From Minisyncoccota bacterium (lineage in GTDB: Bacteria > Patescibacteriota > Minisyncoccia > Phycocordibacterales > DASSSU01), in the NCBI GenBank assembly GCA_035708305.1, contig DASSSU010000020.1, forward strand, positions 8,481 to 72,480: a DNA stretch of 64,000 nt. The letters run 5' to 3'. Position 1 is the first letter of the stretch. Each line of letters begins with the position of its first letter. Positions 22,171 to 40,506 of the stretch are shown piece after piece. The notes under the pieces were generated by a model. That model was not told the origin of the DNA. It worked only from the letters and a program-made list of their open reading frames with translations, and made no database searches. Position numbers and translations under genes: made by a program.

Positions 22171-22192
22171 ATTTTTTATTTAAATAATAACT

Positions 22193-22786
22193 TTAAACTT
22201 CAATCGTGCCTGTTTTGACTTCTCCTGCCCGTTTGTATGACGCGATGATTATACCAGTTGTCGTGACTTCACATTCCAGCAATTTAAATGCTGCGGGAAT
22301 CGCACCATTGTCAAACAACTTCTTTCCTGAACCGAGCGTCAGCGGGTAAATTTTGAGCCGAAGTTCATCCACCAAATCGTTCGCAAGAAGTAACTGAACG
22401 AGTTTGCTGCTACCCCAAACTTGAATGTCGCGACCATTTCCCTCTTTGAGCCTTTTGATATCTTCCACACTTTTGATAAATACGGTGTTTTCCCAATCTG
22501 TCTCTTCTACGGTATTGGACAGAACATATTTTGTCCCATCCGTGATTGCCAGCCAAAAATCCGTATGCTTCGGCCAGTATGGTTCCCAAATTCCGAAAGT
22601 TTTTCTTCCTAAAAGATAATCGGCGGGTTCCATCTCCTTTTTCACGATCTTTCCCGAGACCTCATCCGCATACGAGGCTGTCCAGCCGCCATACTTAAAC
22701 CCGCCCGATGTATCTTCCTCAGGCCCACCGGGCGCTTGCATGACTCCGTCGAGCGTTATCATTTCTATGACAATGATTTTTCTCAT
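22193..22786 (-). CDS. RibD C-terminal domain / dihydrofolate-reductase-like reductase (YwjB family)
   Basis: MRKIIVIEMITLDGVMQAPGGPEEDTSGGFKYGGWT is the RibD_C family N-terminus. 197 aa. Confidence 0.7.
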   Translation of the reverse strand: MRKIIVIEMITLDGVMQAPGGPEEDTSGGFKYGGWTASYADEVSGKIVKKEMEPADYLLGRKTFGIWEPYWPKHTDFWLAITDGTKYVLSNTVEETDWENTVFIKSVEDIKRLKEGNGRDIQVWGSSKLVQLLLANDLVDELRLKIYPLTLGSGKKLFDNGAIPAAFKLLECEVTTTGIIIASYKRAGEVKTGTIEV

Positions 22787-24302: not shown

Positions 24303-24320
24303 ACGAGAAATTTAAGGGAA

Positions 24321-24749
24321 TTATACCACCTTTCCGCCTGCACTCTCTATTTTCTTCTTCGCACTCTCCGAAACTTCACATTTGGAAATTTCGAGCTTTT
24401 TGGAAAGATCCCCTCCTCCCAAAATTTTCACCTGCGGAAGCTTGCCATCCCGCTTGCGAATAATGTTTTTGTTCAGAAGCACCGTAGGAGTGACACGCTC
24501 TCCTGAGTTGAAGCTCTCCAAAACAGAAACATTCACCACTTCTGGATGAGCACTGCGCGAATGGAATCGATATCCTCGCTGCTTCGGGATCTTTTTGATG
24601 AGGTCTCGCAATTCCGGGCGAAGTTTTGCACCAGCGCGCGCTTTCTGCCCCTTTGTTCCGCGTCCGGAAGTTTTTCCGCGCTTTCCGCCGCGTCCTACTC
24701 GCTTTTTTGTGCTGTTTGGATGCTCTCTGGTAATGTTGTGAATCTGCAT
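24321..24749 (-). CDS. rplO: 50S ribosomal protein L15
   Basis: GRGGKRGKTSGRGTKGQKARAG glycine/lysine-rich N-terminus typical of L15. 142 aa. Confidence 0.9.
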   Translation of the reverse strand: MQIHNITREHPNSTKKRVGRGGKRGKTSGRGTKGQKARAGAKLRPELRDLIKKIPKQRGYRFHSRSAHPEVVNVSVLESFNSGERVTPTVLLNKNIIRKRDGKLPQVKILGGGDLSKKLEISKCEVSESAKKKIESAGGKVV

Positions 24750-24770
24750 GGTTCTTTGAATTAATCGAAA

Positions 24771-25466
24771 TTATTTTTTGGCTTCTGCCGTGTCCGCCGC
24801 TTTCGCCTTTGTGGACGTGTGGCTTTCGCGCCCTTCCTTGGAAGATCTTTTCTCTTCGCCCGAAAGTCGGGAAAGTGCCAAAACAGCGGCCCGAGCGTTG
24901 TTCAGGGAATTCTTACTTCTGGAGAGAATTTTTGCCGACACGTCATGCACGCCGCCAAGGTCAAGCACGCTTCGTACGGCGCTTCCTGCCACCAAGCCCT
25001 TTCCTGGAGCTGGCATGATCACCAAACGCGAACTGCAATACTTTGCTTCCACTTCGTGAGGAATGGACATGTTTTTCTGGAGAGAAAGCTTCAACATGTT
25101 TTTCTTGGCATTGTTGAATGCTTTTTCGATCGCAATGGCGGTATCTGCACCCTTGCCCAAACCAACCCCCACCCGGCCTTTTCGGTCTCCGGCGGCAAGC
25201 GTCACGCTGAAACTAAAGCGGCGGCCTCCTGCCATCACACGGGTCACACGGCGGATATCCAGAATTTTTTGATCAAATTCCGGCTTGAATTTTTCAGCGT
25301 TCCTTCTTCCTCGAGGATTTCTTCCTCCCATCGGTGAACGTCTTCGATCCCGCCCATCTCGCGAGCCATTGAAACGATTCTGAGGAGCACCTTCACGGCC
25401 TGAAGCCACGGAAGCGGTTCCTCCTTCTTTTCTCTCCTGTACTTTTGTAATATTTTCGTCTGCCAT
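24771..25466 (-). CDS. rpsE: 30S ribosomal protein S5 with N- and C-terminal extensions
   Basis: Core RVTRVMAGGRRFSFSVTLAAGDRKGRVGVGLGKGADTAIAIEKA, plus an RG-rich ~60-aa N-extension and a KA-rich C-tail. 231 aa. Confidence 0.9.
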   Translation of the reverse strand: MADENITKVQERKEGGTASVASGREGAPQNRFNGSRDGRDRRRSPMGGRNPRGRRNAEKFKPEFDQKILDIRRVTRVMAGGRRFSFSVTLAAGDRKGRVGVGLGKGADTAIAIEKAFNNAKKNMLKLSLQKNMSIPHEVEAKYCSSRLVIMPAPGKGLVAGSAVRSVLDLGGVHDVSAKILSRSKNSLNNARAAVLALSRLSGEEKRSSKEGRESHTSTKAKAADTAEAKK

Positions 25467-25492
25467 AATTTTATTCCAACCTTTATAAATAT

Positions 25493-25849
25493 TTAAAATT
25501 CAAGTCCTCCTTCACGGGCCGCCTCGGCAAGAGCCTTGATTCTCCCGGTGTAGATAAAGCCACCACGATCAAACACCACCTGTTTGATGTTTTTCTTCGC
25601 TGCTTTCCCGGCAATATCCTTCCCGATTGCTTCCGCTTTTTTGCGAAGGTTACCGGAAATATGAAGTTCCAGATCGGAAGAAGATGCCAACGTTTTGCCC
25701 TGTTCATCATCGATGACCTGAGCGTAGAGGTGGCGGTTGGAACGGAACACAGAGAGTCGCGGGTACGAAGCAGTACCATTCACGTGTCCGCGGATTCGTC
25801 GATGTCTCCGCTCTCTTTTTGCATTTTTGATTTGTGTTTTTGAAGTCAT
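25493..25849 (-). CDS. rplR: 50S ribosomal protein L18
   Basis: [45 protein letters not shown] matches the L18 consensus. Confidence 0.9.
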
Positions 25850-25876
25850 GATATTGCTTTTAAAAATGAAAAAGTT

Positions 25877-26413
25877 TTATGCGCTCTTCTTTCCTTCCTT
25901 TCGGCGGATCACTTCGTTTTCGTAACGGATGCCTTTGCCCTTGTACGGTTCCGGCTTCTTCAAAGCACGAAGCTGTGCAGAAAAAGCTCCGACCATTTCC
26001 TTGTCAATTCCAGTTACCGTGATTACATTTTTCTCCGCCGTTACCGTCAGACCTGTTGGAATGTTTTTCTCCACCGGATGAGAAAAGCCGATGTTAAGCA
26101 CGAGTTTGTCGCCGGAAACCTGAGATCGAAAACCAACTCCCTCCACGATCAGCTTTTTCACAAACGGCTCGTTCACGCCAGCAATCATATTTTTCACATG
26201 AGAAGCGTATGTCCCCCAAAGAGCACGTCCAAACTGTGTTTCCTTTTTTGGAGAAAGCTTTACCTCACCGTTTTCCACGGCAATGGTGATCGTTGGGCGA
26301 AAAGTTCGCTGCAATTCCCCATGCGGACCTTTTACGGACAAAACACCTTCGTCCGAAATCGTAACTTCGGTTTTCTGTGGTATCTCAATAACTTGTTTTC
26401 CAATTCGCGACAT
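25877..26413 (-). CDS. rplF: 50S ribosomal protein L6
   Basis: MSRIGKQVIEIPQKTEVTISDEGVLSVKGPHGEL is the L6 N-terminus. 178 aa. Confidence 0.9.
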   Translation of the reverse strand: MSRIGKQVIEIPQKTEVTISDEGVLSVKGPHGELQRTFRPTITIAVENGEVKLSPKKETQFGRALWGTYASHVKNMIAGVNEPFVKKLIVEGVGFRSQVSGDKLVLNIGFSHPVEKNIPTGLTVTAEKNVITVTGIDKEMVGAFSAQLRALKKPEPYKGKGIRYENEVIRRKEGKKSA

Positions 26414-26477
26414 ATTTTTAAAACTATTTGTTTTGTTTGTGAGCTGTGGTTTGATGTTGAATTATGTATTTTGTGTC

Positions 26478-26660
26478 AGCCAAGCTTCCCTGCGTCAGCC
26501 AAGAGTTTCTTTTTGAGTGCAGTTCAAGGCGTGATTGAGATCTTTGATGTGAGCCGTACTCGTGCGTACGGTGAATGTCAAAATCTCAATCACAACGCAG
26601 AAATGTGCCAAAAAGGGACTCTTGGGGCTACCAGATTTCAAAAAGGGACTCCCCTCCCAC
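26478..26660. repeat. Structured intergenic repeat element, copy 1 (between rplF and rpsH; 3' end overlaps the rpsH stop region)
   Basis: ~170 bp with a 13-bp outer stem (gcgtgattgagat ... atctcaatcac) enclosing a ccgtac..gtacgg palindrome and a tttga..tcaaa stem. Homologous to copy 2 at 27080-27265, and contains a local direct repeat aaaaagggactc x2. Confidence 0.6.
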
Positions 26661-27020
26661 TCTCATTTTTCTCGCCTCATCCCCGGTCATGACCCCCTTT
26701 GAAGTGGAGACAACCAACATTCCATATCCATGCTTCACTGGATAAATATCCGCAGCATGAATGTACACTCTCTTGGAAGGTTTGGAATGTCTTTTGACTC
26801 CCTTAATCTTTGAAACAGCTGCTCCTTTTTTTAATTCAACTTCAAGCCACGTTCGTTTGTCTTTATCGGTTTTCTTTGTCTGTGATTCGATGTACCCGTT
26901 TTTCTGAAGTACTTCAGCGATGTTTTGCAAAATCTTTGAATACGGAACGAGCACGGTGTCTTTGCCCGCGTTCGTTGCGTTTTTCAACCGAATGATGAAA
27001 TCTGAAATAGAATCTTGCAT
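26628..27020 (-). CDS. rpsH: 30S ribosomal protein S8 (ORF track extends to a TTG at 27080; ATG at 27020 gives the canonical MQDSISDFIIRLKNA start)
   Basis: MQDSISDFIIRLKNATNAGKDTVLVPYSKILQNIAEVLQKNGYI and the C-terminal GGESLFEIW match S8. Confidence 0.9.
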   Translation of the reverse strand: MQDSISDFIIRLKNATNAGKDTVLVPYSKILQNIAEVLQKNGYIESQTKKTDKDKRTWLEVELKKGAAVSKIKGVKRHSKPSKRVYIHAADIYPVKHGYGMLVVSTSKGVMTGDEARKMRVGGESLFEIW

Positions 27021-27079
27021 ATGATTAATTATTTTTTTCTTTGCTTGCGTCAACGGGTTCCGATTCCTTGCACCAGCCA

Positions 27080-27265
27080 AGCTTTCATTTCAATCTTGGC
27101 ACGTCAGCCGAACTTTCATTTCTGAGTGCTATTCGAAGGCAAATGTTTTCTTTTGGTGATGAGCCGTACTCTTCCGTACAGTGAATGCCAAAATGAAACA
27201 TTTGCCAAAGAAGAGTGCCAGAGATGAAAGTTCGGAGCTACCAGGAGGATTTGCGCACTCCCGGC
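27080..27265. repeat. Structured intergenic repeat element, copy 2 (between rpsH and rpsZ; 3' end overlaps the rpsZ stop region)
   Basis: Homologous to copy 1 (shared gtcagcc, gagtgc, gagccgtact, gtgaatg.caaaat, ctaccag and ctcccctcc blocks). Its outer stem is a different sequence (ggcaaatgttt ... aaacatttgcc) and its inner stem tttgg..ccaaa has compensatory changes. Confidence 0.6.
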
Positions 27266-27423
27266 ACCTTCCCCTCCACCGCCAATTCCCGAAAGCAAAT
27301 TCTGCACAAATCAAAATCCCGCATATAACCATGCTTGCGCCCGCACTTAAAACACCGCCGCACGAGACGCGTGCTAAACTTTGGTTTTTCCTGAGATCTT
27401 GCAACAACTGATTTCTTTGCCAT
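27238..27423 (-). CDS. rpsZ: 30S ribosomal protein S14, type Z (zinc-binding, 61 aa), embedded in a longer artefactual ORF in the track
   Basis: MAKKSVVARSQEKPKFSTRLVRRCFKCGRKHGYMRDFDLCRICFRELAVEGKVPGVRKSSW has the 4-Cys (CxxC...CxxC) S14-Z signature. The upstream in-frame 119 aa have no ribosomal-protein similarity. Confidence 0.85.
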   Translation of the reverse strand: MAKKSVVARSQEKPKFSTRLVRRCFKCGRKHGYMRDFDLCRICFRELAVEGKVPGVRKSSW

Positions 27424-27550: not shown

Positions 27551-28681
27551 TTATTCTGATTCCCACATTCCCAGCCACATCCAGGCGAGATTGTAGAAGT
27601 CGTATTTCGACGGATCGGCTCCGGAGAGCTTCTGCACGTACATGGTATGCGTCGCATTCGGATACAGGATTCTCCATACCGGCAGAAGCGCTGCATAGTG
27701 CGCACCCGACTCATAGCTGACCGAAGCGGTTCCGTTGGAACGATACGTCGCAAAAATTTCTCCTTTCTTGTTCCAATCAAATGCCAATGGAACGGTCATA
27801 CTTTTTAAGAATGACAGAGCCCGCGGATCCTTTGAATATTCGTAGTCAAGCGCCACTCGGTATGGTACGCGGATCGCATCCCAATCGTACCCAGATGCCG
27901 CCTCGCCGTTCATTTGGAAATTGGTCGTGAAGTTCCCATGGGAATCAACCCGGCACCAGTCCGTCGGAAGCCCTGCCGATCCGCGGCATTCCGAATAAAT
28001 TTTGTAGGAAGAATCTACGAGCTCCATCCAATCATGACTGGGATCCATTTGTGCAAACACACGATACGCATACGGTGCCAAGTATGAAGGGTTCAAAGTT
28101 GCTCCACTTTCGCCCGCCGTCCAGTTGCCGGCAGTGACATACCGAGTACCCGCAACTTTTTTTGTCTCGTTGTTCCAAATCCCCTGAAGGATTTTTTTGG
28201 ATTCCTGATCATACTGCGGCATGTTCCACCTTCGCGCCGCCAAGTGAAGCGCATACGCAATATCGGTATCAGCATCCGTCGCAGCATTCCAGTCTGTGAC
28301 TTTGCCATTTGAGTACTGCCAAGCAAAGAGCCCATCACCGCGCTGCAAATGAGTCTTTGTCCAATTCCAGACATGTCGGAACACTGTTCGGTCGTTCTCT
28401 CCAACCGCGATCAGCATCATGTATGCCTGACTTTCCGAGACAGTGCCATTAGGACGGGTCTCAACAAAACCGCTCCAATGCACATACCTGTCCAAAGTGT
28501 AGAGATAAACAGAGTCTTCTTTTTTGTGAATACCAGAACCAAAAAGATCCTGCCATGTAAACTGCACCTGATGCCCAAGGAATCCAAAGAATCCTCCTGC
28601 TGCCATCAGTGTTCCCGCAAAGAATACTTTCACTTTACCTGCTTTTTTCTGAGAGTTTCCCCGTCTCAAACGATCCAACAT
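27551..28681 (-). CDS. Glycoside hydrolase family 8 (endo-beta-1,4-glucanase, BcsZ/CelY-like), membrane-anchored/secreted
   Basis: N-terminal TM. SESQAYMMLIAVGENDRTVFRHVWNWTKTHLQ, then DGLFAWQY, then DWNAATDADTDIAYALHLAARRW parallels the BcsZ blocks SEGQGYGM / NWT / AW / DAD. 376 aa. Confidence 0.7.
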   Translation of the reverse strand: MLDRLRRGNSQKKAGKVKVFFAGTLMAAGGFFGFLGHQVQFTWQDLFGSGIHKKEDSVYLYTLDRYVHWSGFVETRPNGTVSESQAYMMLIAVGENDRTVFRHVWNWTKTHLQRGDGLFAWQYSNGKVTDWNAATDADTDIAYALHLAARRWNMPQYDQESKKILQGIWNNETKKVAGTRYVTAGNWTAGESGATLNPSYLAPYAYRVFAQMDPSHDWMELVDSSYKIYSECRGSAGLPTDWCRVDSHGNFTTNFQMNGEAASGYDWDAIRVPYRVALDYEYSKDPRALSFLKSMTVPLAFDWNKKGEIFATYRSNGTASVSYESGAHYAALLPVWRILYPNATHTMYVQKLSGADPSKYDFYNLAWMWLGMWESE

Positions 28682-28802
28682 TTTTTTCCATTATAGCATG
28701 TTTTTTTAAAATGCAAAATTTATTTTTTCCGCTTTTGTTCTGCGCGTATTTTTTCTTTTTTGCGTTCGAAATTTACAATAAAAAAATCTAAAAATAAAAA
28801 AA

Positions 28803-31022
28803 TTATTTTTTTGAACTCTCAATAGTTTTCCATAAAGTTGTCGTTGCCGGCGTTCGCTTCGCCATTAACCACGTCACAAAAAATATTGCCACATAAAGAA
28901 AAAGAGAAAACGGAAACTGAAAAAAAGTTTTAAAAAATTCTTTTACGACTAAAAATTTTGGAAGATAACTTTCTTTTTTGACCAGTTCTTCGCCAAAAAT
29001 ATCGCGATGCCGTGTCTGATTCTGCATGACGCGGATCCCTTGCTTGAGGTGATCGGAAAAATTATCAGGAAGTGTGAAGTACGTGAGCACACCTCTCGCA
29101 TAGCCATATTTGAAGCCATTTTTTTTCGAAAAAAGAAACGAATACACATCTTCACCCGGACGTTCCACGATATTTAATTTTTTGTAAAGTTTTTGGTGAA
29201 AAGCTCTTTGCGCTCCGTAGCACGTGTAACGGTTATTTCCTCCGGCATACGAAAGGTAAACGGCATACTTCAAACGGCATCCGGCATAGAGCGCTTTTTC
29301 TATCAGCGTTCGGGGAGGGGTGGGTGTGGGAAGCGCGGAAGTAAAGTCCGCTTCCCCGAGAACAATCGGCCGCGTGAGATTTTCGAGCACCATATCGTTT
29401 CCCAGCTGAATATCCGCATCAAACACCACAGCAACATCCGCGCTGGTGAGCTGAAAAAATTGATTCACTCTTGCAGCTTTCCCTCTTCGCATCTTCTCAT
29501 CCAAAATAATGATCTTGTGAGAACCGAGGGATGCCGCTTCTCGTACGGTACCATCGGTGCTTCCATCGGAGAAAAGAAAAATTTTGTCTAACACAAAATG
29601 CTCCTGCCGCTGATGAAGAATTGACTGGAGGAATTCTTTAATATTTTTCTCTTCATTCAAAGCAGAGATACCGACGGAAACACGTGGAGGTGTCGGAACT
29701 CTGGCTGCCTCTGATCGAGAAATATACTCCGCTCTCTCCCGTTCTTCTTTTTGCAACGCAGCACGCTCCTGAAAGGCTCTGAAAAAATGCATTGAAAAAA
29801 TTGTTACCGTATGCAAAAGTGCCGTAAAGAAAAAAACGAGGAGAAATTCTCCAATACGGTGATGAAAAACAAGCGTTCCGACAAAGAAAATCAGCGCAGA
29901 CAGAAGCGCGGCGAAAGTAAACTGAAATTCCTTTTTTGCGTGGTGATACAGCACAACAGTGTAAGAAATCGTAAAGCCTGTCATAGCAAAAATGTACCAG
30001 GGTAAAAGCGGCAAAACAGCAGCCACTTTACTTCCATAAATCGCGGTAAAAAACCACTTCCCAAAAAAGATAAAAAACACCGCGCCAAGTGTGACAAAAG
30101 CAACCGTTGCAGCAAGTAACCATCGAAAGATGCCGCGTGTGTCCTTTCCTTCGCGCGTAAAGTTTGAAATTACCGAGATCATAACCGCAGAGAGGAGTGA
30201 ACCCGAAAAGAAAAGCATTTTGCCGCAGAGGGTAATAAGCGCGTACGCCCCGGCAGTTTCCGGATCAAAAAAAGCTTTCGCGAGAAAAATATCGAACGTC
30301 AAAAAGGTGAGCGTCGTCAAGCCAAGGAGAACAGTAAAAAAGAAAAATGCGCTGGGAAAAGGGATCGAATCTTTCGTAATATTTTCTTGCGGCAAATTTC
30401 CCGCGCGAACTTTCCAAAGAAAAAACAGCCCAAGAAAACACGAGAGGATCACCGAAATTGGAATGCTCAAATACGCCAGCGGTGCCAGACCCCAAACGGT
30501 GAACATTACTGCACCGATCAGCTTAAAGAGCGATTCAGAAAAAAAAATAATTCCTGCGATCGCAAAATACAAACCGCCTTGGAAAATTCCGCGAAGCAAA
30601 AATGTCAATCCTCCGAACAAAAAAATCGGGAGAAAAAACATAAGTGGCACTGCACCAGTCTCCCAGATACGGGCGAGAACGGGCAGAGCCGCGAGCCACA
30701 CAACAGACAAGATTCCCGCAAACGCCGCCACCTGCTTTCCCCAAGTGCGGAAGAAGAAAAATCCTGAAGTTTCCGGCCGCCCGCCATACCAGCCAACGCC
30801 GTGCCCTACGCTCGAAGACAGTGCGTTTAAAAAAACACTCGCCGTAGTGAGCAACGCCAAAAAAACCGCCACCAAGCTAAAATCGCCCGGCGTCAGATGG
30901 CGCCCCAAATACAGGTAAAAGATAAAATTCAAAATATTGCCAAACACCAACGCGAGACTGAAAACGGCACCCTCCCGAATTGTCTGCGGCAAAAAATTTT
31001 TTATTTTTTCCAAAGTAAGCAT
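28803..31022 (-). CDS. Fusion protein: multi-TM polysaccharide-flippase-like (Wzx/MOP-type) N-domain + GT2 glycosyltransferase C-domain
   Basis: ~14 predicted TM helices in the first ~440 aa. The C-terminal part has GT2 motifs (VSVGISALNEEKNIKEFL, FLFSDGSTDGT, VVFDADIQL). 739 aa. Confidence 0.55.
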   Translation of the reverse strand: MLTLEKIKNFLPQTIREGAVFSLALVFGNILNFIFYLYLGRHLTPGDFSLVAVFLALLTTASVFLNALSSSVGHGVGWYGGRPETSGFFFFRTWGKQVAAFAGILSVVWLAALPVLARIWETGAVPLMFFLPIFLFGGLTFLLRGIFQGGLYFAIAGIIFFSESLFKLIGAVMFTVWGLAPLAYLSIPISVILSCFLGLFFLWKVRAGNLPQENITKDSIPFPSAFFFFTVLLGLTTLTFLTFDIFLAKAFFDPETAGAYALITLCGKMLFFSGSLLSAVMISVISNFTREGKDTRGIFRWLLAATVAFVTLGAVFFIFFGKWFFTAIYGSKVAAVLPLLPWYIFAMTGFTISYTVVLYHHAKKEFQFTFAALLSALIFFVGTLVFHHRIGEFLLVFFFTALLHTVTIFSMHFFRAFQERAALQKEERERAEYISRSEAARVPTPPRVSVGISALNEEKNIKEFLQSILHQRQEHFVLDKIFLFSDGSTDGTVREAASLGSHKIIILDEKMRRGKAARVNQFFQLTSADVAVVFDADIQLGNDMVLENLTRPIVLGEADFTSALPTPTPPRTLIEKALYAGCRLKYAVYLSYAGGNNRYTCYGAQRAFHQKLYKKLNIVERPGEDVYSFLFSKKNGFKYGYARGVLTYFTLPDNFSDHLKQGIRVMQNQTRHRDIFGEELVKKESYLPKFLVVKEFFKTFFQFPFSLFLYVAIFFVTWLMAKRTPATTTLWKTIESSKK

Positions 31023-31025
31023 ACC

Positions 31026-32783
31026 CTATTTATTATTCACCAGTCCCATTTTCTGTTCTATCGTTTTTGGATCCCAAGTCTGCATGTTTGGATGAAGTGA
31101 CGGAACATACGCTTCATTGAGATGATTTTCCTGGATATATTTTTCCACGGCAGGAATTTTGAGCTGATAGAGAACTGTTTCTGGAGTTTTGTATACCATC
31201 GTGTAGAAGTTTTTGAAATACACACTCCCTTCCCATTTGTCAGACACCGGATCTTTTGCGCGCACTCGATCGGGACTGGTCGGGTTGGTCATGATCACCC
31301 ACGGTGTGTAGAGCCATGGACGCCCAAGCACTTCGTCAAAATAGATAAAGTTTCCTTCATAAATATAATTCTTGAGCGGAATGTCGCTATCAAGAAGCGT
31401 GTAGTCATGGTTAAAGCGAGTGGCGAGAATTTTCCCTCCGGTGTAATGCTCTTTGAGGTACACGGCCACCGGGTTCTTTTGATCACGCGATGTAGCACTT
31501 AAGTCATCCCGAATCACAGAAAAATTACTGGCAAAAGCGGTGCGATAAAAGTGCACACCGGTAATCGTAAAAACAAAAATCGCAAACACCGGAATGACAA
31601 GAACCGAAACCCATTTTTGCCGAACGTGAACGGCAAGATATTCCCGAACCCCGACAGCCATGAGCGTGACCGCCGCCACGGCAAACCCGATCCAGGTCAA
31701 CCCGTAGCGGGTATTGTGAAAGCCCACGTACGAGAGGAATTCAGGCGTGTAAATTGCCGCCGAACCGCGATATAAGCTGGAAACCACCGCCGCAAACGGA
31801 ACCAGCAGCGCCACAAATGCCGCGGCGACAATTGTTTTTTTCTTCACCAGCGCAATGGCAAGAATGGCACAAAAGAGAGAGAGTGGAACAAAAAACTTCC
31901 CCAGCATGTAAAAAGACGCATGCAGAAAAAAATTGACGGAGGAAAGTACGCTGTGCTGCGTCAGATCCGAGTTGATGGAAAGGTTCCAAACCTCGCCATT
32001 TCCGATACCAGCAAATGCAAGCGGACTTCCGGCGAACGCCCAGCTATTCAGTACGATCAGAACCATTCCCACCGCCGCAAGAACGCCATAGAGTACCGTG
32101 AGTGCTTCAGATTCGGAGTATGTTTTTTTCTTGCGGTACATTTGCACCCATAGCATGAACACCAAAACCGGAATGAGCAGCAGACCTTCATACCTCGAAA
32201 GACAGGTGAGCGTAACAAAGAGTGCCGTAAGCAAGATATATCTCAGACGCTCATACTTCATCCAGAGCGTGAAGAAGTACGCGGTTCCAAAAAGCATGCT
32301 CATGAAGAGGATTTCTGTCATTGGCACAGACGCGTAGTAGAGAACAAAAGGATTAAAGACGTATAGCAACGTTCCCAAGAAACTCAATATTTTTCGTCCA
32401 CTGAGTTCCAGCAGTAAGCGATACAGAAACACGCTTCCCATGGCAAAAAAGGGAATGAGCGCCGCAGCCCCCATGAGTCCCGTACGAAACAAAAAATCCG
32501 ACAGAGAAAATGGCGCCATGACCACGTGTAAAAGCGGCGGCCACGTACCGAGCTGGCTGACTCCCGGCGTCATGCTGTCGATCAGGATCCGAGCGAAAAT
32601 CATATGTGCCACTTCATCAGCAAGTGCTGTGGTTAAGTGTTTCGTGGAAACATACCACGCCATAAGCGAAGCTGAGGTGACCGAGATCAACACCAGCGCG
32701 CACTCGTAACGATATCGCGCAAAAAAATCCAAAAACCCGCCGCGCTCAGTATTTTCTCTGTTTGTGTTTGTATGCATGTTCAT
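31026..32783 (-). CDS. GT-C fold glycosyltransferase, PMT/GT39-like (protein O-mannosyltransferase-like) integral membrane protein
   Basis: First extracytoplasmic loop carries LADEVAHMIFARIL, resembling the PMT/ArnT catalytic DE(VHF) motif. ~11 TM followed by a large C-terminal soluble domain. 585 aa. Start overlaps the next gene's stop by 4 nt. Confidence 0.5.
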   Translation of the reverse strand: MNMHTNTNRENTERGGFLDFFARYRYECALVLISVTSASLMAWYVSTKHLTTALADEVAHMIFARILIDSMTPGVSQLGTWPPLLHVVMAPFSLSDFLFRTGLMGAAALIPFFAMGSVFLYRLLLELSGRKILSFLGTLLYVFNPFVLYYASVPMTEILFMSMLFGTAYFFTLWMKYERLRYILLTALFVTLTCLSRYEGLLLIPVLVFMLWVQMYRKKKTYSESEALTVLYGVLAAVGMVLIVLNSWAFAGSPLAFAGIGNGEVWNLSINSDLTQHSVLSSVNFFLHASFYMLGKFFVPLSLFCAILAIALVKKKTIVAAAFVALLVPFAAVVSSLYRGSAAIYTPEFLSYVGFHNTRYGLTWIGFAVAAVTLMAVGVREYLAVHVRQKWVSVLVIPVFAIFVFTITGVHFYRTAFASNFSVIRDDLSATSRDQKNPVAVYLKEHYTGGKILATRFNHDYTLLDSDIPLKNYIYEGNFIYFDEVLGRPWLYTPWVIMTNPTSPDRVRAKDPVSDKWEGSVYFKNFYTMVYKTPETVLYQLKIPAVEKYIQENHLNEAYVPSLHPNMQTWDPKTIEQKMGLVNNK

Positions 32784-35071
32784 ATTTGGTCGCGAAGATT
32801 AACCGGATTATTTTGGGAAGGCTGATTTTCCGCCGCTCTCATTTTCACCGGAGCGGTTTGAGGAGCTTCTGAGCGCACCCCGTGTTTCGTTTTGTCCCAG
32901 TAATACGGATTGGTAATGAACTGGACAGCACCGCGCGTGGTGGCGTACGCGAGCATCACCCAGTAAAAAATCGAAAGCAGGTTGTATTTCACCAATGAAT
33001 ACCGCCCGCGCTGGTATGAAGAGAGCAAGTTGAGATACGTGAAAACGAAATTCCCCGTTAAAAAAGTGAAGACGGAAATATAGAGCACGACCTTTGGAAA
33101 AAGTTCCTGCACAAAAAGCGGCTGAAAAATGAGCCACACGAGAAATATGATCCAAAAGAAAAGATTGAGGATGTTGATGAGCACGGTCCCAGGAACCACA
33201 AACAAGAACCCGAGAAACGCTCCCCAACCGCCGATCTCATCTTTGAAACGAAGCGGGTGGCGCAAGTGCACGATACTGGTTTGGATAAACCCCTTCATCC
33301 AACGCGATCGCTGGTTGGCCCAAGCGCGAAACGTGCTCGTCGCCTCTTCCCGACTCACAGAGTTGAGCAACCCGGTCTGAAAGCCTCGTCGATGGAGACG
33401 GATACCCAGATCACAGTCTTCTGTGACATTGTACGGATCCCAGCCGCCGATCTCGCGAAGCATATCCACCCGAAAATGTGTGCTGTGTCCTGACAGCGGA
33501 AGCGGAATGCCCATTTTATGAAGTCCGGGAAGAAAATAGTCGTAGTGGAAAGAAAACTCAGAGTTGAAAAGCCTCGTGATCACGCCATCATCAGAGTTGT
33601 AATGATCAAGCCGTGTCTGCAACACTCCTAAGTGCGGTTTTTTTTGAAACGCCAAAACCGCTTTTTTAAGCTGGTCCGGATCGGGAATAATTTCCGCATC
33701 ATAGATAGAGAGAAAAACTCCTCTCGTGTGAAGCAGCGCGACATTCAGCGCCTTTGGCTTCGTCTTTGGCTTCACATCCGGCAAAATCAGCATCTTCATG
33801 TGCCCAGGGAGTTCGGCGTTTTCAAGCGCATGGATGGTTTCTGTATCGTATTCTTCAAGCGTGATAATCATCTCAAGTTTTTCCGGTGGATAATCAATCG
33901 ATGTCATGGCACGGACAATCTGATCCACCACTTCCGATTCCTGGTAGAGCGGAATCAAAACCGTATACAGAGGAAGGTCTTCATCCCGAAGCGCAGCAAT
34001 TTCTTCCCGTGAGAAATCCAAGACATTATCAGAACGCACTGCTTTCCAAACCACCAAAAGCTTGAAGAGCAAAATAAAAAAATAAAAAAACGCGGAAATT
34101 CCCACCCACACCACCAGCAAGGGAACATGAAAAGCTTTGGATAAGAAGAGACTGATGCCAATGAATACTGCTAAAAGTATGACGATGAGTGAAACAGTTT
34201 CAAAGTAAAAGTGCTTTTTCGCGCTCATGATGTCCGAAAGGAAAAGGAAATCTTTTGTGTTTTCAAAATCATTTTCAAATCGCTCGGAGTGGTGCGGATA
34301 ATCCAAAAATTTAAAAAACGCCAAAAGGAAATACTCGCATCGAAGTGCGATTCCGCCAAACAGAAGTTCGAAACCGGTACCCAGGGCATTGACCTTGCTC
34401 TTGCCGCTTTCGCGTGCCGCAAAATGGATCGGCACTTCTGTAATGCGCCATTTCATATGACTCGCCTTGTAGAGAAATTCATAATCAAACCCCCACTTTG
34501 AAGGAGAGAGCGGCACACTCTCCACCACCCTTCTCCGAAACACCTTCAAGCCGGACTGCACATCTATCGGTGTCCCCAGAAGCAGCCTGCCAAAAACATT
34601 TCGAAAAACCCTGCTCAGAAAGCTTCGTACACTTTTTTCTTCCGTTCTTGTCTTTCGGTTCGCCACCACAATGTCGGCTGACTCCAATTTTTTTATCATT
34701 TCCGGAATAGTCTCCGGCGGATACTGGAGATCAGCATCGATCATAGCAATAATACCGGTATCTGCGTGAGTTATTCCTTCAAGCAACGAGTAGGATTTTC
34801 CCTTCTTCCCCTTCTTGCGATACAACCCCATCGGGAAAGATGGCTGATAATGTTCCAGGTACTCAAACGTTCCATCTGAAGAATGGTCGTCAATAAAAAT
34901 CACCTCGTAGTTGATGCAAGCGTTTTCAAAAGTACGATCCAAACGCTCCAGAAACAGTGGAAGATTCCCCCGTTCATCGAGAACTGGAACAACAACAGAA
35001 ACTTCAGGCTTTGCGTAAATGATCTGGTCAGTAAATTTTCGTGAAAGAGCGCGTTTTTTTTGAACATCCAA
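32780..35071 (-). CDS. Double glycosyltransferase family 2 protein: DPM1/GtrB-like polyprenyl-phosphate glycosyltransferase + processive cellulose-synthase-like GT2 (D,D,D,QxxRW)
   Basis: N-domain: VSVVVPVLDE...IFIDDHSSDGT...IAMIDADLQYPPE (DPM1/ArnC-like). TM block. Second domain: LYTVLIPLYQESEVV...SIYDAEII...NVTEDCDLG...ANQRSRWMKG (DxD, TED, QRxRW), then C-terminal TMs. 763 aa. Confidence 0.75.
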   Translation of the reverse strand: MDVQKKRALSRKFTDQIIYAKPEVSVVVPVLDERGNLPLFLERLDRTFENACINYEVIFIDDHSSDGTFEYLEHYQPSFPMGLYRKKGKKGKSYSLLEGITHADTGIIAMIDADLQYPPETIPEMIKKLESADIVVANRKTRTEEKSVRSFLSRVFRNVFGRLLLGTPIDVQSGLKVFRRRVVESVPLSPSKWGFDYEFLYKASHMKWRITEVPIHFAARESGKSKVNALGTGFELLFGGIALRCEYFLLAFFKFLDYPHHSERFENDFENTKDFLFLSDIMSAKKHFYFETVSLIVILLAVFIGISLFLSKAFHVPLLVVWVGISAFFYFFILLFKLLVVWKAVRSDNVLDFSREEIAALRDEDLPLYTVLIPLYQESEVVDQIVRAMTSIDYPPEKLEMIITLEEYDTETIHALENAELPGHMKMLILPDVKPKTKPKALNVALLHTRGVFLSIYDAEIIPDPDQLKKAVLAFQKKPHLGVLQTRLDHYNSDDGVITRLFNSEFSFHYDYFLPGLHKMGIPLPLSGHSTHFRVDMLREIGGWDPYNVTEDCDLGIRLHRRGFQTGLLNSVSREEATSTFRAWANQRSRWMKGFIQTSIVHLRHPLRFKDEIGGWGAFLGFLFVVPGTVLINILNLFFWIIFLVWLIFQPLFVQELFPKVVLYISVFTFLTGNFVFTYLNLLSSYQRGRYSLVKYNLLSIFYWVMLAYATTRGAVQFITNPYYWDKTKHGVRSEAPQTAPVKMRAAENQPSQNNPVNLRDQI

Positions 35072-35344
35072 AAACCTCTTTCTTTTTTTGTGAAAAAGTT
35101 TATTTTTAATAATAAGTCTTTGTTTTTACGGGAGATTCCGCCGTTTTTCTTTCGTCTTCAGCTGGTTAATAAAGACGTGCGGTGATACGAGGGCTTACAG
35201 GAATTTTGTATTGCACTTTAAAAGAGTGTACACGCGGAGAGATTAAGAAAAGATGATACTGGTATTTTTAAGAGAGAAAAATTTTTGTCAGCTCAAATTT
35301 TAAGAATTTTTGAGAGAAAAAAGAAAATTTAAAAAACGAAAAAC

Positions 35345-35380
35345 AAAAAAATCTTGCTGAATGCAAGATTTTTTTGTTTC
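35345..35380 (-). terminator. Rho-independent terminator downstream of secF
   Basis: atcttgc-tgaa-tgcaagat hairpin flanked by A-run/T-run (tttttttgtttttcg on the minus strand). Confidence 0.6.
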
Positions 35381-35397
35381 TGAAATTTGAAAAGTGA

Positions 35398-37968: not shown

Positions 37969-40506
37969 CTATGGTTTTTTCACCTGTGATGTTCCGGAAG
38001 CAGAGCTTTCGGTAGAGTTTGGGATGCTTTCTGTAGAATTGACAGCCGCATGAGTGAAGGGTGATTTCCCCGCTTTCAGATCCCCAAGAATGTTTTTTAC
38101 ATCTGCACTGTCCGGATTCATTTTTTGAAGATTTTCAAAAATACTGACCGCCTGCTGATGTTCGCCCAATCGCTCATACGAAAGTCCGAGATAGTATTCC
38201 GCATTGGCGTATGTCGGGACAAGAGCAATGGACTGCAAGAGCGCCTTCTCTGCCATGTCATATTCCCCATTTTGATATTCCAAAAATCCCAGCTGGAACC
38301 AAAGCGTTGGATCGTTCTGTACCAAAGAAGCAGCGTGTGCGAGAGAATCAGCTGCACCCTGCGTGTCGTTCAAAGCAATCTGGAGACTCGCCTGCTCCAC
38401 ATAGGCATCTGCATAGTTAGATTTTTCTCGGAGAGCATTTTTCAGGTATGTTTGTGCCTGAGCGGTGTTGTTTTGCGTACGTTCCAAACGTGCCATGTCC
38501 AGATATGCCTCCGGAGAATACGGAGAGAAAGTAAAGACATGGGAATAAAAGGCGTTTGACGCTTCATACGCGCCGGAGACGTGAAGTGAGGCGAAAAAAC
38601 GGTAGAGGTTTCCGAGGAAGAGCCAGTTTTGGTAATTGGTCGGATCAAGGTCTTTCGCCGTCTGCGCATCTGTGATCGCCTGTTCAAAGATCTTCTGGAA
38701 ATTATCCATGTCAACCGACTTGCCAGAAGCAGAAGCCTGCTGTTCGATCTGCTGCATTTGCATGACGCTAATTTCTGAAAGTCCGCGGTAGTATGCATCG
38801 ACTTTATCAAGCTTGGCGGCTTTTGAAATTTCCGCCCGTGCCTCCGCGAGATTCTTATTTTGGGTGTAGGCAGTGGTACCTTTTTGAAAAGCTACGGCGG
38901 CACGGTATTTTTGTACGGTCAGATAGATACCGCCAAGAGAGACAATGAGCAGCACAACGAGAATACCGGTGAATGCTGTTTTCGTTTTGCCGGGCACAGA
39001 AAATTCACATTGAGAGAGTTTGACAATCTGCTCCTGCCCCAGAAAAGCAATCAGCATACCCAGCAAGGCAAATGCCAAAGCAGTTACTGCAAGTCCCGGC
39101 GTATAAAACAAAAGCACTCCCCACAGATACCAGACCATCAGATACAAGGTAAGAAACATTTTTTTGCCGGAAGAAGACAGTGCTCGCGAGAAAAACCCCC
39201 GCTTCCCTTCGTAGATCATTCCTGCAAGAAGAACAAGCAGTGAAAAAATCCCGAGCCACCCTTGCGTAATCCCGCGCGTTCCAAAGAAACTGACGGCTGA
39301 CTGGAAATCTACGTTCCACCACGGGGTCAAATTCACCGCTTGGGACTTGTACTGCGCCCAGTCTTTGAAAAATGTTCCCGGACCAGTGCCAAACAGCGCG
39401 TGGGTTATCCCCGTATGTGCAACGTCTCCCGAAATTTGAACCGTGGTCTTCCACGATGGCCGCGCTTGAGCGGTGCTATCCATTCCGGTCAAATGCGAAA
39501 GAGCGGGGTTGATGCGCGGACCAAATACCAGAAAAATTATGGAAAAAAGAAAAACAAAAGCGGGAAAAAATACCGAGCGAAGAAAAATACCCTGCTTTGT
39601 TTTTGGGGTGTGCTCTCTCTTTTTTACCAGCCAAGAAAAAAGGAAAGGGATGGAAACTCCCTCTTGCGACAAGCCAGTGAGTAAAAGAACAGCCGAAAAG
39701 AACACGAGCAGCCAGAGCACCACCGGCAGCGAAAAAACTGCCAGAGCAATGAGTGATATCACCACCATAAGAGATGCTGCGATTTGCAACGCACTTTTTT
39801 TCCAGAAAAACTGCTGAAGACACAGCCCTACCAAAACCGAAAAGCCGAAGAAAACCGGCACGTCATACCATCCGCCAAAAATCGTTTGATACGCCCCGGT
39901 AAAGTATCCCAAAGAAAGAAACGAAGCTCCGAAGATCAAACGAAGCGCATGAAAGAGCGTTAGCAAGAGGAATAGAAGAAAAAAAGCGAAGAAAAAAACT
40001 TGAACATGCTTCCGTTCAAAGTACCGTGCCGAAAGAAAAGCGAGAAGCGAAAAAATTACCGTAAAAAGAAAGGTGTCTGTCTGGATTCCCCGTCCAAAGA
40101 GCGCATAACTCCACGAGGAAGAAACAAGTGAAGAAAGAAATGCTGAGAACACCAGAAGTACCAAACCTACCCACACAAAGCTTTTTGGGAACGAAAAACG
40201 CAAAGCTCTGAGACTGGAAAAAATCCACAGACAAAAAGCCGCTAAGATGAGAATCCCCAGCAAAGCCCCCTTTGAAGTCTCAAGCAAAAGTCCGGGAATT
40301 GGTACAAAAAAAATCGAAACAAAAAAAACCGCTGCCCACAAGCATCCGCTCGAAATCTTTTCCAATAGCGTCTTCGTGTGTATTCGCGAAGAAGGGGGCA
40401 CTCGATGTGAGTGTTCGGAAATTTCTGAAAGCTCTTCTCGCGAATGTTCGTGCGCCGAAGCTCTCACCTTTTTTTCATAAATGCTCTGTATTCTTCTTTC
40501 GTTCAT
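37969..40506 (-). CDS. O-antigen ligase-like (Wzy_C) polytopic membrane protein fused to C-terminal TPR repeats
   Basis: ~12 TM helices over ~500 aa, then ~300 aa of TPR-like repeats (YYRGLSEI..., AKDLDPTNYQNWLFLGNLY, AEYYLGLSYERLGEHQQA). 845 aa. Confidence 0.55.
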   Translation of the reverse strand: MNERRIQSIYEKKVRASAHEHSREELSEISEHSHRVPPSSRIHTKTLLEKISSGCLWAAVFFVSIFFVPIPGLLLETSKGALLGILILAAFCLWIFSSLRALRFSFPKSFVWVGLVLLVFSAFLSSLVSSSWSYALFGRGIQTDTFLFTVIFSLLAFLSARYFERKHVQVFFFAFFLLFLLLTLFHALRLIFGASFLSLGYFTGAYQTIFGGWYDVPVFFGFSVLVGLCLQQFFWKKSALQIAASLMVVISLIALAVFSLPVVLWLLVFFSAVLLLTGLSQEGVSIPFLFSWLVKKREHTPKTKQGIFLRSVFFPAFVFLFSIIFLVFGPRINPALSHLTGMDSTAQARPSWKTTVQISGDVAHTGITHALFGTGPGTFFKDWAQYKSQAVNLTPWWNVDFQSAVSFFGTRGITQGWLGIFSLLVLLAGMIYEGKRGFFSRALSSSGKKMFLTLYLMVWYLWGVLLFYTPGLAVTALAFALLGMLIAFLGQEQIVKLSQCEFSVPGKTKTAFTGILVVLLIVSLGGIYLTVQKYRAAVAFQKGTTAYTQNKNLAEARAEISKAAKLDKVDAYYRGLSEISVMQMQQIEQQASASGKSVDMDNFQKIFEQAITDAQTAKDLDPTNYQNWLFLGNLYRFFASLHVSGAYEASNAFYSHVFTFSPYSPEAYLDMARLERTQNNTAQAQTYLKNALREKSNYADAYVEQASLQIALNDTQGAADSLAHAASLVQNDPTLWFQLGFLEYQNGEYDMAEKALLQSIALVPTYANAEYYLGLSYERLGEHQQAVSIFENLQKMNPDSADVKNILGDLKAGKSPFTHAAVNSTESIPNSTESSASGTSQVKKP

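Follow-up and report, generated by a model that had tools for sequence, protein, structure and literature searches.

What might a bacterium of the Minisyncoccota make with a glucanase, a flippase and several glycosyltransferases encoded side by side? The question is raised by four ORFs on the minus strand of the window, the 64,000-nucleotide stretch of DNA analysed here, whose coordinates as first annotated were borne out by an ORF check (Table 1). Our preferred answer, to which we assign a probability of roughly one half, is that the locus is a compact form of a surface-polysaccharide module that is conserved among the Patescibacteria, in which the synthesis of a cellulose-like glucan is combined with extracytoplasmic glycosylation of the Gtr/Gac type.

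Table 1. Features of the locus, numbered by position in the window.
Feature	Coordinates	Strand	Extent	Assignment	Basis or remark
ORF1	27551-28681	(-)	376 aa	Membrane-anchored GH8 endo-β-1,4-glucanase, CelA/BcsZ-like	Pfam and PDB
ORF2	28803-31022	(-)	739 aa	MOP/Wzx-type flippase fused to GT2	
ORF2, C-terminal domain	28803-29732	(-)	aa 431-739	Non-processive GT2	Pfam Glycos_transf_2 8.2e-16, residues 449-561
ORF2, N-terminal domain	29733-31022	(-)	aa 1-430	Predicted MOP-superfamily (Wzx/MurJ-type) flippase	AF2, Foldseek and homologue Pfam matches
ORF3	31026-32783	(-)	585 aa	GT-C fold membrane glycosyltransferase	Extracytoplasmic C-terminal α/β domain, ~aa 430-585
ORF4	32780-35071	(-)	763 aa	GtrB/DPMS-like GT2 fused to BcsA-like processive GT2	
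ORF4, C-terminal part	32780-34336	(-)	~aa 246-763	BcsA-like processive GT2	Pfam and PDB matches
ORF4, N-terminal domain	34337-35071	(-)	aa 1-245	GtrB/DPMS/ArnC-like GT2	Pfam and PDB matches
Promoter-like site	28690-28717	(-)		TTTGCA-16-TATAAT with TG	Consensus match only; 121-nt gap between ORF2 and the GH8 gene
Promoter-like site	35264-35291	(-)		Weak sigma-70-like match upstream of ORF4	Consensus match only
Hairpin	35339-35381	(-)	19 bp	Terminator-like, with T-run	Just after secF; upstream boundary of the locus

The C-terminal part of ORF4 is composed of a conserved cytoplasmic leader, two transmembrane (TM) helices, the glycosyltransferase domain and a set of C-terminal TM helices; by hydropathy, two helices precede the domain (292-345) and at least three follow it (613-679). 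It matches the Pfam families Glyco_tranf_2_3 (4.5e-36) and Glyco_trans_2_3 (2.4e-24), and its closest solved relative in the PDB is BcsA (7lby; 1.2e-15). Across 24 aligned homologues the motifs DAE458-460, TED550-552 and QRSRW587-591 are invariant, and the first Asp motif is of the atypical form LEEYD. ORF1, at the other end of the locus, is a GH8 glucanase as initially annotated (Pfam GH8, 1.8e-38; 132.9 bits against a cut-off of 24), with CelA (1cem; 1.9e-23) and BcsZ (3qxf; 3e-14) as PDB matches. Its catalytic Glu (E83) and an Asp equivalent to CelA D278 align with 1cem, and a single N-terminal TM helix spans residues 17-35.

For comparison, 60 related loci were assembled from separate GTDB species, almost all of them Patescibacteria and drawn from many groups; the processive GT2 was used to collect them and is thus present in 60/60 by construction. 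Of these loci, 23 encode GH8, which in 15 is fused C-terminally to the GT-C enzyme; 20 encode GH6, and GH5 (“Cellulase”) occurs once, as a fusion, in L060. A β-1,4-linked glucan is indicated by the recurrence, in one and the same position, of endoglucanases from three unrelated families. It is indicated too by a neighbouring protein that resembles CBM4_9 and CBM30, though weakly and under the Pfam cut-off in each case, and by BcsA being the closest solved relative of the synthase.

The polymer could nevertheless be something else, since the synthase scores far below the cellulose-synthase cut-offs (72 bits against the equivalog cut-off of 699 for TIGR03030 CelA, and 70 against 992 for PRK11498) and has PgaC/IcaA as its best NCBIfam match (1e-30, versus 2e-20 for CelA). 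Independently of what the GT-C enzyme does, a different β-linked polymer of the PNAG, chitin, chitosan or ManNAc type would be in keeping with the LEEYD motif, with the chitosanases that GH8 includes and with a CE4 deacetylase in the extended cluster of L035. A precedent is offered by Listeria Pss, which like YdaJKLMN of Bacillus subtilis is a Gram-positive synthase-dependent exopolysaccharide system; in both, the GT2 is BcsA-like, the hydrolase (PssZ/YdaJ) belongs to GH8, and a BcsB-like partner and c-di-GMP receptors are present, with neither a GT-C enzyme nor a GtrB-like domain. Such a polymer is unlikely given the recurrent GH6 genes, the GH5 fusion and the likeness of the window's GH8 enzyme to cellulases, CelA and BcsZ being its nearest matches. 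The TED...RLHRRG segment of the synthase also seems close to that of E. coli BcsA.

The identity of ORF3 as a GT-C enzyme, proposed from the outset, is supported by its GT-C fold and PMT_2-like N-terminal region. Its PMT_2 score (25.6 bits) is under the gathering cut-off of 26.1, which some homologues clear (31.7 bits), and that family also takes in ArnT-like enzymes. The C-terminal α/β domain, of ~150 aa, is extracytoplasmic. Directly after TM1, loop 1 carries the catalytic-type acidic residue that had been anticipated, D56, which is conserved in 51 of 55 homologues; the position that follows it is mostly Gln (27), otherwise Ala (10), Ser (9) or Glu (6). Structural likeness to ALG12, AglB and ArnT is about equal to that for PMT, and no Pfam match to a MIR domain was found in ORF3.

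In related genomes these genes are linked rather than scattered. In 56 of the 58 loci with room for it, the next gene after the synthase is that of the GT-C enzyme, and the two usually abut or overlap slightly, such that a processive GT2 followed directly by a GT-C gene is the conserved unit. It is also present in at least one genome of the Dormibacterota. We infer from this adjacency, along with the glucanase fusions, that the acceptor of the GT-C enzyme is the product of the adjacent synthase.

So close a pairing, near-universal even where no GtrB-like gene lies nearby, would also suit a GT-C protein that acts mainly as a structural co-subunit of the synthase, a Patescibacterial substitute for Proteobacterial BcsB or Streptomyces GlxA that guides the glucan and tethers the glucanase, with glycosyl transfer secondary or absent. 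GH8 or GH5 is joined to the extracytoplasmic end of the GT-C protein, and unrelated partners replace BcsB in other lineages too (PMC8892547). Furthermore, in L045 and L062 the GT-C homologue, a 400-bit match, is retained directly after the synthase although D56, H60, R197 and E199 are all replaced; because these residues are lost and the gene is kept, the protein of these two loci also, or instead, has a non-catalytic role. As a general account, however, a structural role seems improbable, as catalytic-type residues are conserved in ~93% of the homologues, the synthase/GT-C pair has GtrB-like genes and flippases of four kinds linked or fused to it, and in L060 the GtrB-like domain is joined straight to the GT-C enzyme itself.

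The N-terminal domain of ORF4 (Pfam Glycos_transf_2, 3e-32) is matched in the PDB by DPMS (5mlz; 5.7e-27), GtrB (5ekp; 1.8e-19) and ArnC (1e-18), and DD61-62 and the DxD residues D112/D114 are conserved in the homologue alignment. Pfam and the DPMS, GtrB and BcsA matches hence agree with the initial annotation of ORF4 as a DPM1/GtrB-like GT2 joined to a processive QxxRW synthase, and its GT2 catalytic residues (DxD, TED and QRSRW) are in place. The domain is a putative polyprenyl-phosphate sugar synthase; its nearest solved relative is a mannose enzyme, and its sugar specificity is not readable at the level of sequence. Among the related loci, a GtrB-like GT2 is joined to the synthase in 28 of 60, 11 more encode it separately, either ahead of the synthase gene or behind it, and about a third have no such gene within 10 kb.

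ORF2 was thought to combine a Wzx-like flippase with a GT2, and here the predicted fold, homologue profiles and Pfam concur. The N-terminal domain itself matches Polysacc_synt weakly (E 1e-3; 18.6 bits against a cut-off of 28.2), but this family is matched by 23 of 45 homologues (best E 8e-18) and Polysacc_synt_3 by 13. In Foldseek searches the AF2 model (pLDDT 91.6) resembles MurJ (6nc6; 1e-6, TM 0.69) and WzxE (9g9p; TM 0.71), with TM scores to these two proteins of 0.69-0.74, and the domain is accordingly predicted to be a MOP/Wzx-fold flippase for a lipid-linked sugar. The GT2 domain carries a DAD motif and a single C-terminal TM helix (703-721). The ORF2-type gene is a rare accessory (4/60 loci); outside the window, MOP flippases occur in L022, as a homologous MOP+GT2(+GT4) fusion, and as stand-alone copies in L031, L035 and L036. 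Elsewhere, the flippase is of the GtrA (PF04138, 5e-25; L049 and L054-56), LAB_N (L028) or MprF-like LPG_synthase_TM (L023) type. Non-orthologous replacement of this kind is the pattern expected if a lipid-linked-sugar flippase is required.

The frequent fusion of the GtrB-like domain to the synthase could also be explained by lipid-primed synthesis, whereby the N-terminal domain makes a polyprenyl-phosphate-sugar primer that the synthase elongates while exporting it, and the GT-C enzyme, as a ligase, transfers the whole glucan from the lipid to a peptidoglycan, protein or lipid anchor, in a manner resembling synthase-dependent O-antigen assembly followed by WaaL ligation. Lipid-linked donors are the only ones that GT-C enzymes use (PMC9574508). 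A LysM domain in one GT-C homologue (P0138) would suggest proximity to the wall. Despite these points, en-bloc transfer is very improbable: the GtrA, LAB_N, MprF-like and MOP flippases would be superfluous if the synthase exported a lipid-linked chain, and in about a third of the loci the synthase has no GtrB-like gene nearby. We also know of no precedent for a BcsA-like enzyme that elongates a polyprenyl-monophosphate sugar.

Protein O-glycosylation of the Ppm1/Pmt type (e.g. of pilins or an S-layer), merely co-located with an unrelated exopolysaccharide synthase and glucanase, is highly doubtful. Such systems, known from Actinobacteria and eukaryotes, have in common with the locus a DPMS-like GT2 plus a GT-C enzyme whose N-terminal region is PMT_2-like and whose loop 1 holds an acidic residue. 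However, the GT-C enzyme of the module tracks the processive synthase rather than the DPM1-like domain, is joined to a GH8 or GH5 glucanase in 16 species, lacks a conserved second residue of the DE motif (E57) and a MIR domain, and resembles PMT in structure no more than it does ALG12, AglB or ArnT. Its partnership with the synthase, and its fusion to GH8 in 15 species, argue instead for a polymer-directed role, and protein O-mannosylation is less likely than glycosylation of a glucan. The Ppm1/Pmt and BcsA/BcsZ logics, which the initial annotation had set side by side, are not separate alternatives, the comparative loci showing one integrated module; the broader proposal of an extracytoplasmic surface-glycan system is supported by the domain identities and by these loci.

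In the glucan-glycosylation model that we prefer, the C-terminal half of ORF4 would polymerise a β-1,4-linked glucan from a nucleotide sugar and extrude it through its own membrane channel, while the N-terminal domain would place a single sugar on polyprenyl phosphate at the cytoplasmic face. The MOP/Wzx-type domain of ORF2 would then flip the lipid-linked sugar, possibly after its GT2 domain has added one further sugar in the manner of the Lactococcus Wps enzymes. ORF3, situated beside the synthase and perhaps in a physical complex with it, would glycosylate the glucan outside the cell by means of this lipid-linked-sugar system, and the membrane-tethered GH8 enzyme would trim or release the chains, which is the part played by BcsZ, CslZ and CcsZ. 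There are precedents for these parts: a backbone polysaccharide is decorated with sugars delivered on C55-P by the Wzx-type flippases GacK and WpsG and the GT-C enzymes GacL and WpsJ (PMC9574508), and the companion glucanase of a cellulose synthase may be BcsZ (GH8), CslZ (GH6) or the membrane-tethered CcsZ (GH5) (PMC8892547, PMC9040799). The model is built on domain identities, folds, catalytic motifs, gene order and patterns of fusion and conservation, from which its sugar, its linkage, the GT-C acceptor and the physical complex are deduced. The low cellulose-synthase scores, the loci devoid of a GtrB-like gene within 10 kb, the rarity of the ORF2-type flippase and the retention in L045 and L062 of GT-C homologues without D56 count against it.

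The module resembles Bcs (BcsA-BcsB-BcsZ), Streptomyces CslA-GlxA-CslZ and clostridial CcsA-CcsB-CcsZ in its processive GT2, which carries the D, DxD, TED and QxxRW motifs between predicted TM helices, in its extracytoplasmic endo-β-1,4-glucanase and in an obligatory membrane partner whose gene comes next after that of the synthase. Unlike Bcs, it has no BcsB, BcsC, PilZ or c-di-GMP module, its synthase often carries an N-terminal GtrB-like domain and has low similarity to BcsA (E 1e-15), and the partner is a GT-C glycosyltransferase, which is absent from the partner types in a 2021 review of Bcs systems (PMC8892547). Pfam and NCBIfam profiles gave no BcsB or PilZ match in the four proteins or their neighbours. 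The combination of a GtrB-like GT-A with a GT-C enzyme is shared with GtrA/GtrB/GtrV, CsbB/GtcA/YfhO, GacI/J/K/L, WpsA/B-WpsG-WpsJ of L. lactis, ArnC/ArnT and PpgS/Rv3779. In such three- and four-component systems, the GT-A makes a polyprenyl-P-sugar, which a GtrA- or Wzx-type flippase carries across the membrane for a GT-C enzyme, bearing an Asp in loop 1, to place on an outer glycopolymer (PMC9574508, PMC13390465). With its Wzx-type flippase and extra cytoplasmic GT2, the window is most like the Gac and Wps variants. In these known systems, however, the acceptor backbone (rhamnan, teichoic acids, O-antigen, arabinogalactan) is a product of Wzy- or ABC-transporter-dependent pathways, whereas in the module the GT-C enzyme is tied to a BcsA-like enzyme of the synthase-dependent kind. 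The GtrB::synthase, GT-C::GH8, GtrB::GT-C::GH5 and MOP::GT2 fusions are of kinds for which we have seen no description, and no published description of the synthase/GT-C pairing was found in the literature.

More tentatively, the Patescibacteria and at least one member of the Dormibacterota might possess a distinct cellulose-synthase machine, in which an active GT-C enzyme replaces BcsB and glycosylates the emerging glucan with polyprenyl-P-linked sugars supplied by a synthase-fused domain. If so, these epibiotic, ultra-small bacteria would produce a branched surface polymer based on cellulose, which may serve them as an attachment or envelope matrix. Many of the “cellulases” in annotations of CPR genomes would then be accessories to biosynthesis and not enzymes of catabolism. 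The module may build the cell-surface coat of the poorly known Patescibacteria.

ORF4 starts at a TTG codon with an SD-like AAAGAGG upstream. Two 4-nt overlaps had been annotated: that at 32780/32783 is genuine, with the start of ORF3 and the stop of ORF4 sharing ATGA, but at 31022/31026 a TAG stop, GGT and then ATG leave a 3-nt spacer instead. Promoter-like sites, the two in Table 1 among them, are no more numerous in the region than expected from shuffled sequence. Downstream by 127 nt lies rpsZ (27238-27423; Ribosomal_S14, 9e-23), and secF and secD lie upstream, beyond the terminator-like hairpin. The genes had been described as inserted between rpsZ and secDF, a description that finds no support in the GC content, which is close to that of the remainder of the window, or in the flanks, where no mobile-element genes were noticed. 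The position had also been called very unusual: rpsZ lies within 10 kb of the module in none of the related loci and secDF adjoins it only in L052, so the position is uninformative on function, and the location beside rpsZ is incidental and peculiar to this genome.

The conserved unit of the related loci is a pair, composed of a BcsA-like processive GT2 (the synthase) and a GT-C protein. Fifty-nine loci from separate GTDB species were sampled through an alignment of homologues of ORF4, the double-GT2 protein of the window, and supplemented with loci from exact look-ups; all were scanned with the window's proteins, with HMMs and by all-against-all clustering of locus ORFs, and counts refer to 60 non-redundant loci. 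Nearly all are Patescibacterial, with record titles naming Peribacteria, Saccharibacteria, Paceibacterota, Doudna-, Ryan-, Woese-, Wildermuth- and Kaiserbacteria. The initial annotation had treated the four genes of the window as one glycosylation locus, and the linkage that this presumes is borne out in related genomes, where the GT-C gene directly follows the synthase in 56 of the 58 loci with room, mostly abutting or slightly overlapping it. It is missing only from two non-Patescibacterial outliers, a Brocadiia MAG and a Robiginitomaculum MAG; the divergent partners of two other loci (L045 and L062) were missed by tblastn with the window's GT-C protein and recovered by HMM. The module, comprising this pair and its linked partners, appears from sequence to be conserved across the many Patescibacterial groups named in the records, and many independent fusions support it. 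ORF clustering shows no family shared by more than 10 loci besides the synthase, the GT-C protein and GH6.

A GtrB-like putative polyprenyl-P-sugar synthase, some flippase and a β-1,4-endoglucanase are repeatedly recruited to this unit, often by fusion. In 28 loci the synthase carries the GtrB-like GT2 as an N-terminal fusion, and 11 more encode it separately within 10 kb, at variable positions. Of the 60 loci, 23 have GH8, which in 15 is appended to the GT-C protein at its extracytoplasmic C-terminus, as in a 942-aa PMT_2 and GH8 protein (L004); 20 have a GH6 gene no more than 10 kb away. The single GH5 domain is found in Candidatus Nephthysia of the Dormibacterota (L060), within a 1,100-aa protein encoded right after the synthase gene that unites a GtrB-like GT2, a GT-C enzyme and a GH5 "Cellulase"; this triple fusion indicates that the module occurs beyond the Patescibacteria, with GH5 replacing GH8. 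Three unrelated glucanase families occupy one place in the module. The type of putative flippase also varies by lineage.

Features of the window and of related loci (L-handles); positions are those of the window unless a handle is given
Feature	Position	Strand	Remark
ORF1, GH8	27551-28681	minus	
ORF2, MOP/Wzx-type + GT2	28803-31022	minus	
ORF3, GT-C	31026-32783	minus	NCBI annotation starts at second Met
ORF4, double GT2	32780-35071	minus	TTG start, preceded by AAAGAGG
rpsZ	27238-27423		Ribosomal_S14 9e-23; 127 nt downstream of locus
Hairpin, 19 bp + T-run	35381-35339		end of secF/secD
spc ribosomal operon	23031-27423		
rpsZ-rpsH gap	27024-27237		
Genes between secY and adk/map	19634-22786		
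845-aa membrane protein	37969-40506	minus	
Type IV pilus/pseudopilin-like genes	43476-48107	minus	
GtrB-like GT2::GT-C::GH5 protein	L060:11311-14613		
Divergent GT-C partners	L045:11330-12829; L062:3337-4869		
~1,350-aa secreted protein	L056:10018-14082		
Larger glycan clusters	L035:1-10000; L036:900-10000; L031:880-10000		
Putative flippase, GtrA family			L049, L054-56
Putative flippase, LAB_N			L028
Putative flippase, LPG_synthase_TM, MprF-type			L023
Putative flippase, MOP domain			window, L022, L031, L035, L036

All four ORFs reported for the window were found on the minus strand, and Pfam, comparison with the PDB and structure models uphold the domain call made for each. The window has the look of Patescibacterial DNA, and ORF4 shares 100% identity with a protein from a "Candidatus Paceibacterota" MAG. 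ORF1 (Pfam GH8, 1.8e-38) is nearest to the cellulases CelA and BcsZ, retains the catalytic Glu and Asp, and carries a single N-terminal membrane anchor. Residues 1-245 of ORF4 match the Pyrococcus Dol-P-Man synthase (5.7e-27), GtrB and ArnC, and residues ~350-690 match BcsA (1.2e-15); hydropathy places two TM helices between these domains and a minimum of three C-terminal to the second. The catalytic residues expected of both GT2 domains are invariant in a 24-homologue alignment, namely the DxD of the first and the DAE, TED and QRSRW of the second. The C-terminus of ORF2 is a non-processive GT2, and its N-terminal 430 residues give a weak Polysacc_synt match. A full HMMER search returned 1,535 relatives, and among 45 stand-alone relatives Polysacc_synt is found in 23 (best 8e-18) and Polysacc_synt_3 in 13. 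A profile search of PDB sequences with this domain gave only spurious GPCR matches. Its AlphaFold model (pLDDT 91.6) superposes on MurJ and WzxE with a TM score of ~0.7, and the domain is accordingly predicted, from model and sequence, to be a MOP/Wzx-type flippase. ORF3 falls slightly below the Pfam PMT_2 cut-off and matches no PDB sequence. The fold predicted by its AlphaFold model, built from 29 homologues (pLDDT 91.2), is unmistakably that of a GT-C enzyme, with Foldseek matches to DPY19, STT3, PglB, ALG12, AftA and ArnT. The acidic loop 1 residue anticipated for such an enzyme is Asp56, with which the first extracytoplasmic loop begins; this residue is kept in 51 of 55 homologues, and H60, E157, R197 and R359 show similar conservation.

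The best available argument for the nature of the polymer is one of analogy. Cellulose synthases are accompanied by BcsZ (GH8) in Proteobacteria, CslZ (GH6) in Streptomyces and the membrane-tethered CcsZ (GH5) in clostridia (PMC8892547, PMC9040799), and because these are the same three glucanase families as those of the module, its product may be a cellulose-like β-1,4-glucan. A GtrB-like enzyme, a flippase and a GT-C protein together are the hallmark of three- and four-component systems for extracytoplasmic glycosylation, which use C55-P-linked sugars to decorate a backbone polysaccharide; some variants employ a Wzx-type flippase (GacK, WpsG), and some extend the lipid-linked sugar in the cytoplasm before flipping (Wps) (PMC9574508, PMC13390465). 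By way of their fusions, the four genes of the window would accordingly represent a complete hybrid. The synthase portion of ORF4 would make the polymer and its N-terminal domain the lipid-linked sugar, which ORF2, with its extra GT2, would flip; ORF3, as an outward-facing transferase, would then transfer the sugar outside the cell, and the ORF1 glucanase would trim the product. Co-synthetic glycosylation of the emerging glucan is the most likely reading, with a probability of about one half, as the fusions of GT-C proteins to glycoside hydrolases put the transferase at the polymer, and the non-orthologous replacement of flippases suggests that the system requires a lipid-linked sugar to be flipped.

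An unlikely alternative to such glycosylation is that the GT-C protein serves mainly as a structural, BcsB-like component. The divergent GT-C proteins of L045 and L062 speak for this alternative: both are encoded directly after the synthase (400-bit HMM match), have lost D56, H60, R197 and E199, and, judged by these residues, look like catalytically degenerate subunits. It is similarly improbable that the polymer is something other than a glucan, a reading favored by PgaC/IcaA being the best NCBIfam match of the ORF4 synthase, which misses all equivalog cut-offs by far. More doubtful still is lipid-primed synthesis followed by en-bloc transfer driven by the GT-C protein. Protein O-glycosylation, which the initial annotation had offered beside a surface glycan, is comparably doubtful: the linkage of synthase, GT-C gene and glucanase upholds the surface glycan, and protein glycosylation is weakened by the centering of that linkage on the synthase and by the lack of PMT-specific features in ORF3, position 57 being mostly Gln among homologues, such that the family is without the PMT-type DE pair. 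Type IV pilus or pseudopilin-like genes ("GFTLIEL"-type N-terminal motifs) and a gene for a PilC-like protein lie 8 kb from the locus, and if proteins are in fact what the GT-C enzyme glycosylates, these gene products could serve as acceptors. A purely catabolic cellulase locus was rejected, because biosynthetic membrane enzymes flank the glucanases or are fused to them.

The module would work like a Bcs/Csl/Ccs synthase and a Gac/Wps-type decoration system combined, yet fits the definition of neither. Unlike Bcs systems, it is without BcsB, BcsC and PilZ and scores below the curated cellulose-synthase cut-offs, and its GT-C protein is tied to a synthase-dependent polymer, whereas those of Gac/Wps-type systems are tied to an ABC- or Wzy-dependent one. 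A 2021 review of Bcs systems names BcsB, GlxA and HlyD-like proteins, and no GT-C protein, among the partners (PMC8892547), and a full-text literature search returned no description of the synthase/GT-C pairing or of this CPR module; a "capacity for biosynthesis of cellulose" is mentioned in passing for one Saccharibacterium (PMC6031116).

If this reading is true, the module would constitute a new architecture of synthase-dependent polysaccharide secretion, for which BcsB, GlxA and HlyD-like proteins are the partners known to date. The Patescibacteria are a large, mostly uncultured branch of bacterial diversity whose surface cover and mode of host attachment are, to our knowledge, largely unknown, and the module would offer a concrete candidate for a widespread CPR surface polymer. 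The GH5, GH6 and GH8 "cellulases" of CPR genomes would also have to be reread in carbon-cycling inferences, because they lie beside or are fused to biosynthetic genes in these loci. The natural fusions (GtrB::synthase, GT-C::GH8, GtrB::GT-C::GH5 and MOP::GT2) are ready-made constructs for biochemistry and for complex structure prediction.

Further genes accompany some modules. A ~1,350-aa secreted protein follows that of L056 and nine other loci, with GSDH (sugar dehydrogenase-like propeller), PKD, Big, Laminin_G_3 and CARDB domains and weak CBM4_9 and CBM30 matches under Pfam cut-offs, and 8 loci of Peribacteria encode a ~1,220-aa FAD_oxidored protein ahead of the module. Both may be accessories for oxidation or binding, with a loose likeness to Streptomyces GlxA and LpmP. 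Some loci that bear a Saccharibacteria label (L035, L036, L031) have the module next to a larger glycan cluster that includes a 1,395-aa second processive GT2::MOP flippase::GT4 protein, several 300-aa GT2 enzymes, a CE4 deacetylase, a pyruvyl transferase and additional GT-C paralogues.

Within the window, secF and secD lie upstream of the locus and terminate at a 19-bp hairpin, indicating that the locus opens a new transcription unit. Promoter-like and terminator-like sites in the region do not exceed shuffled expectation, and this hairpin is the only convincing one among them. Rfam and tRNA scans in and beside the locus gave no matches, and thus no riboswitch or leader. Of the two overlaps initially claimed, that of ORF4 and ORF3 is a true ATGA overlap, and ORF3 and ORF2 are instead separated by a 3-nt spacer (TAG-GGT-ATG); a gap of 121 nt precedes the GH8 gene. 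The locus had been described as inserted, but its base composition is unremarkable, with normal GC content, and no integrase or transposase was noticed among neighboring ORFs, for which reasons horizontal insertion or a mobile element was rejected. The significance attached to its position beside rpsZ is likewise not sustained, as rpsZ lies within 10 kb of no related locus and secDF is near only one (L052). The adjacency is a quirk of this one genome without relevance to function, and a functional tie to rpsZ or the ribosomal operon was rejected.

The ribosomal neighborhood is itself unusual. The spc operon is truncated, with rpsZ, rpsH, rplF, rplR, rpsE, rplO and secY present and rpmD absent, the latter being usual for CPR. 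Searches of the 64 kb by tblastn with E. coli L5, L24 and L14 queries detected no rplE, rplX or rplN (best E 0.46), indicating that the usually syntenic r-protein block is split upstream of rpsZ. The rpsZ-rpsH gap, which has no Rfam match, is unusually long at ~214 nt if rpsH starts at an internal ATG and not at an upstream TTG. A second break in the conserved secY-adk-map order is formed by four unrelated genes, encoding a GSDH-like protein, a 111-aa ORF, a 3-dmu-9_3-mt/glyoxalase protein and a RibD_C-like reductase. Encoded between secD and ftsW/rodA is an 845-aa protein that is rich in TM helices and carries a TPR array at its C-terminus. Pfam recognizes nothing in it but these repeats, its N-terminal 600 residues being without a match, and it could be a further envelope or glycan-related membrane protein.
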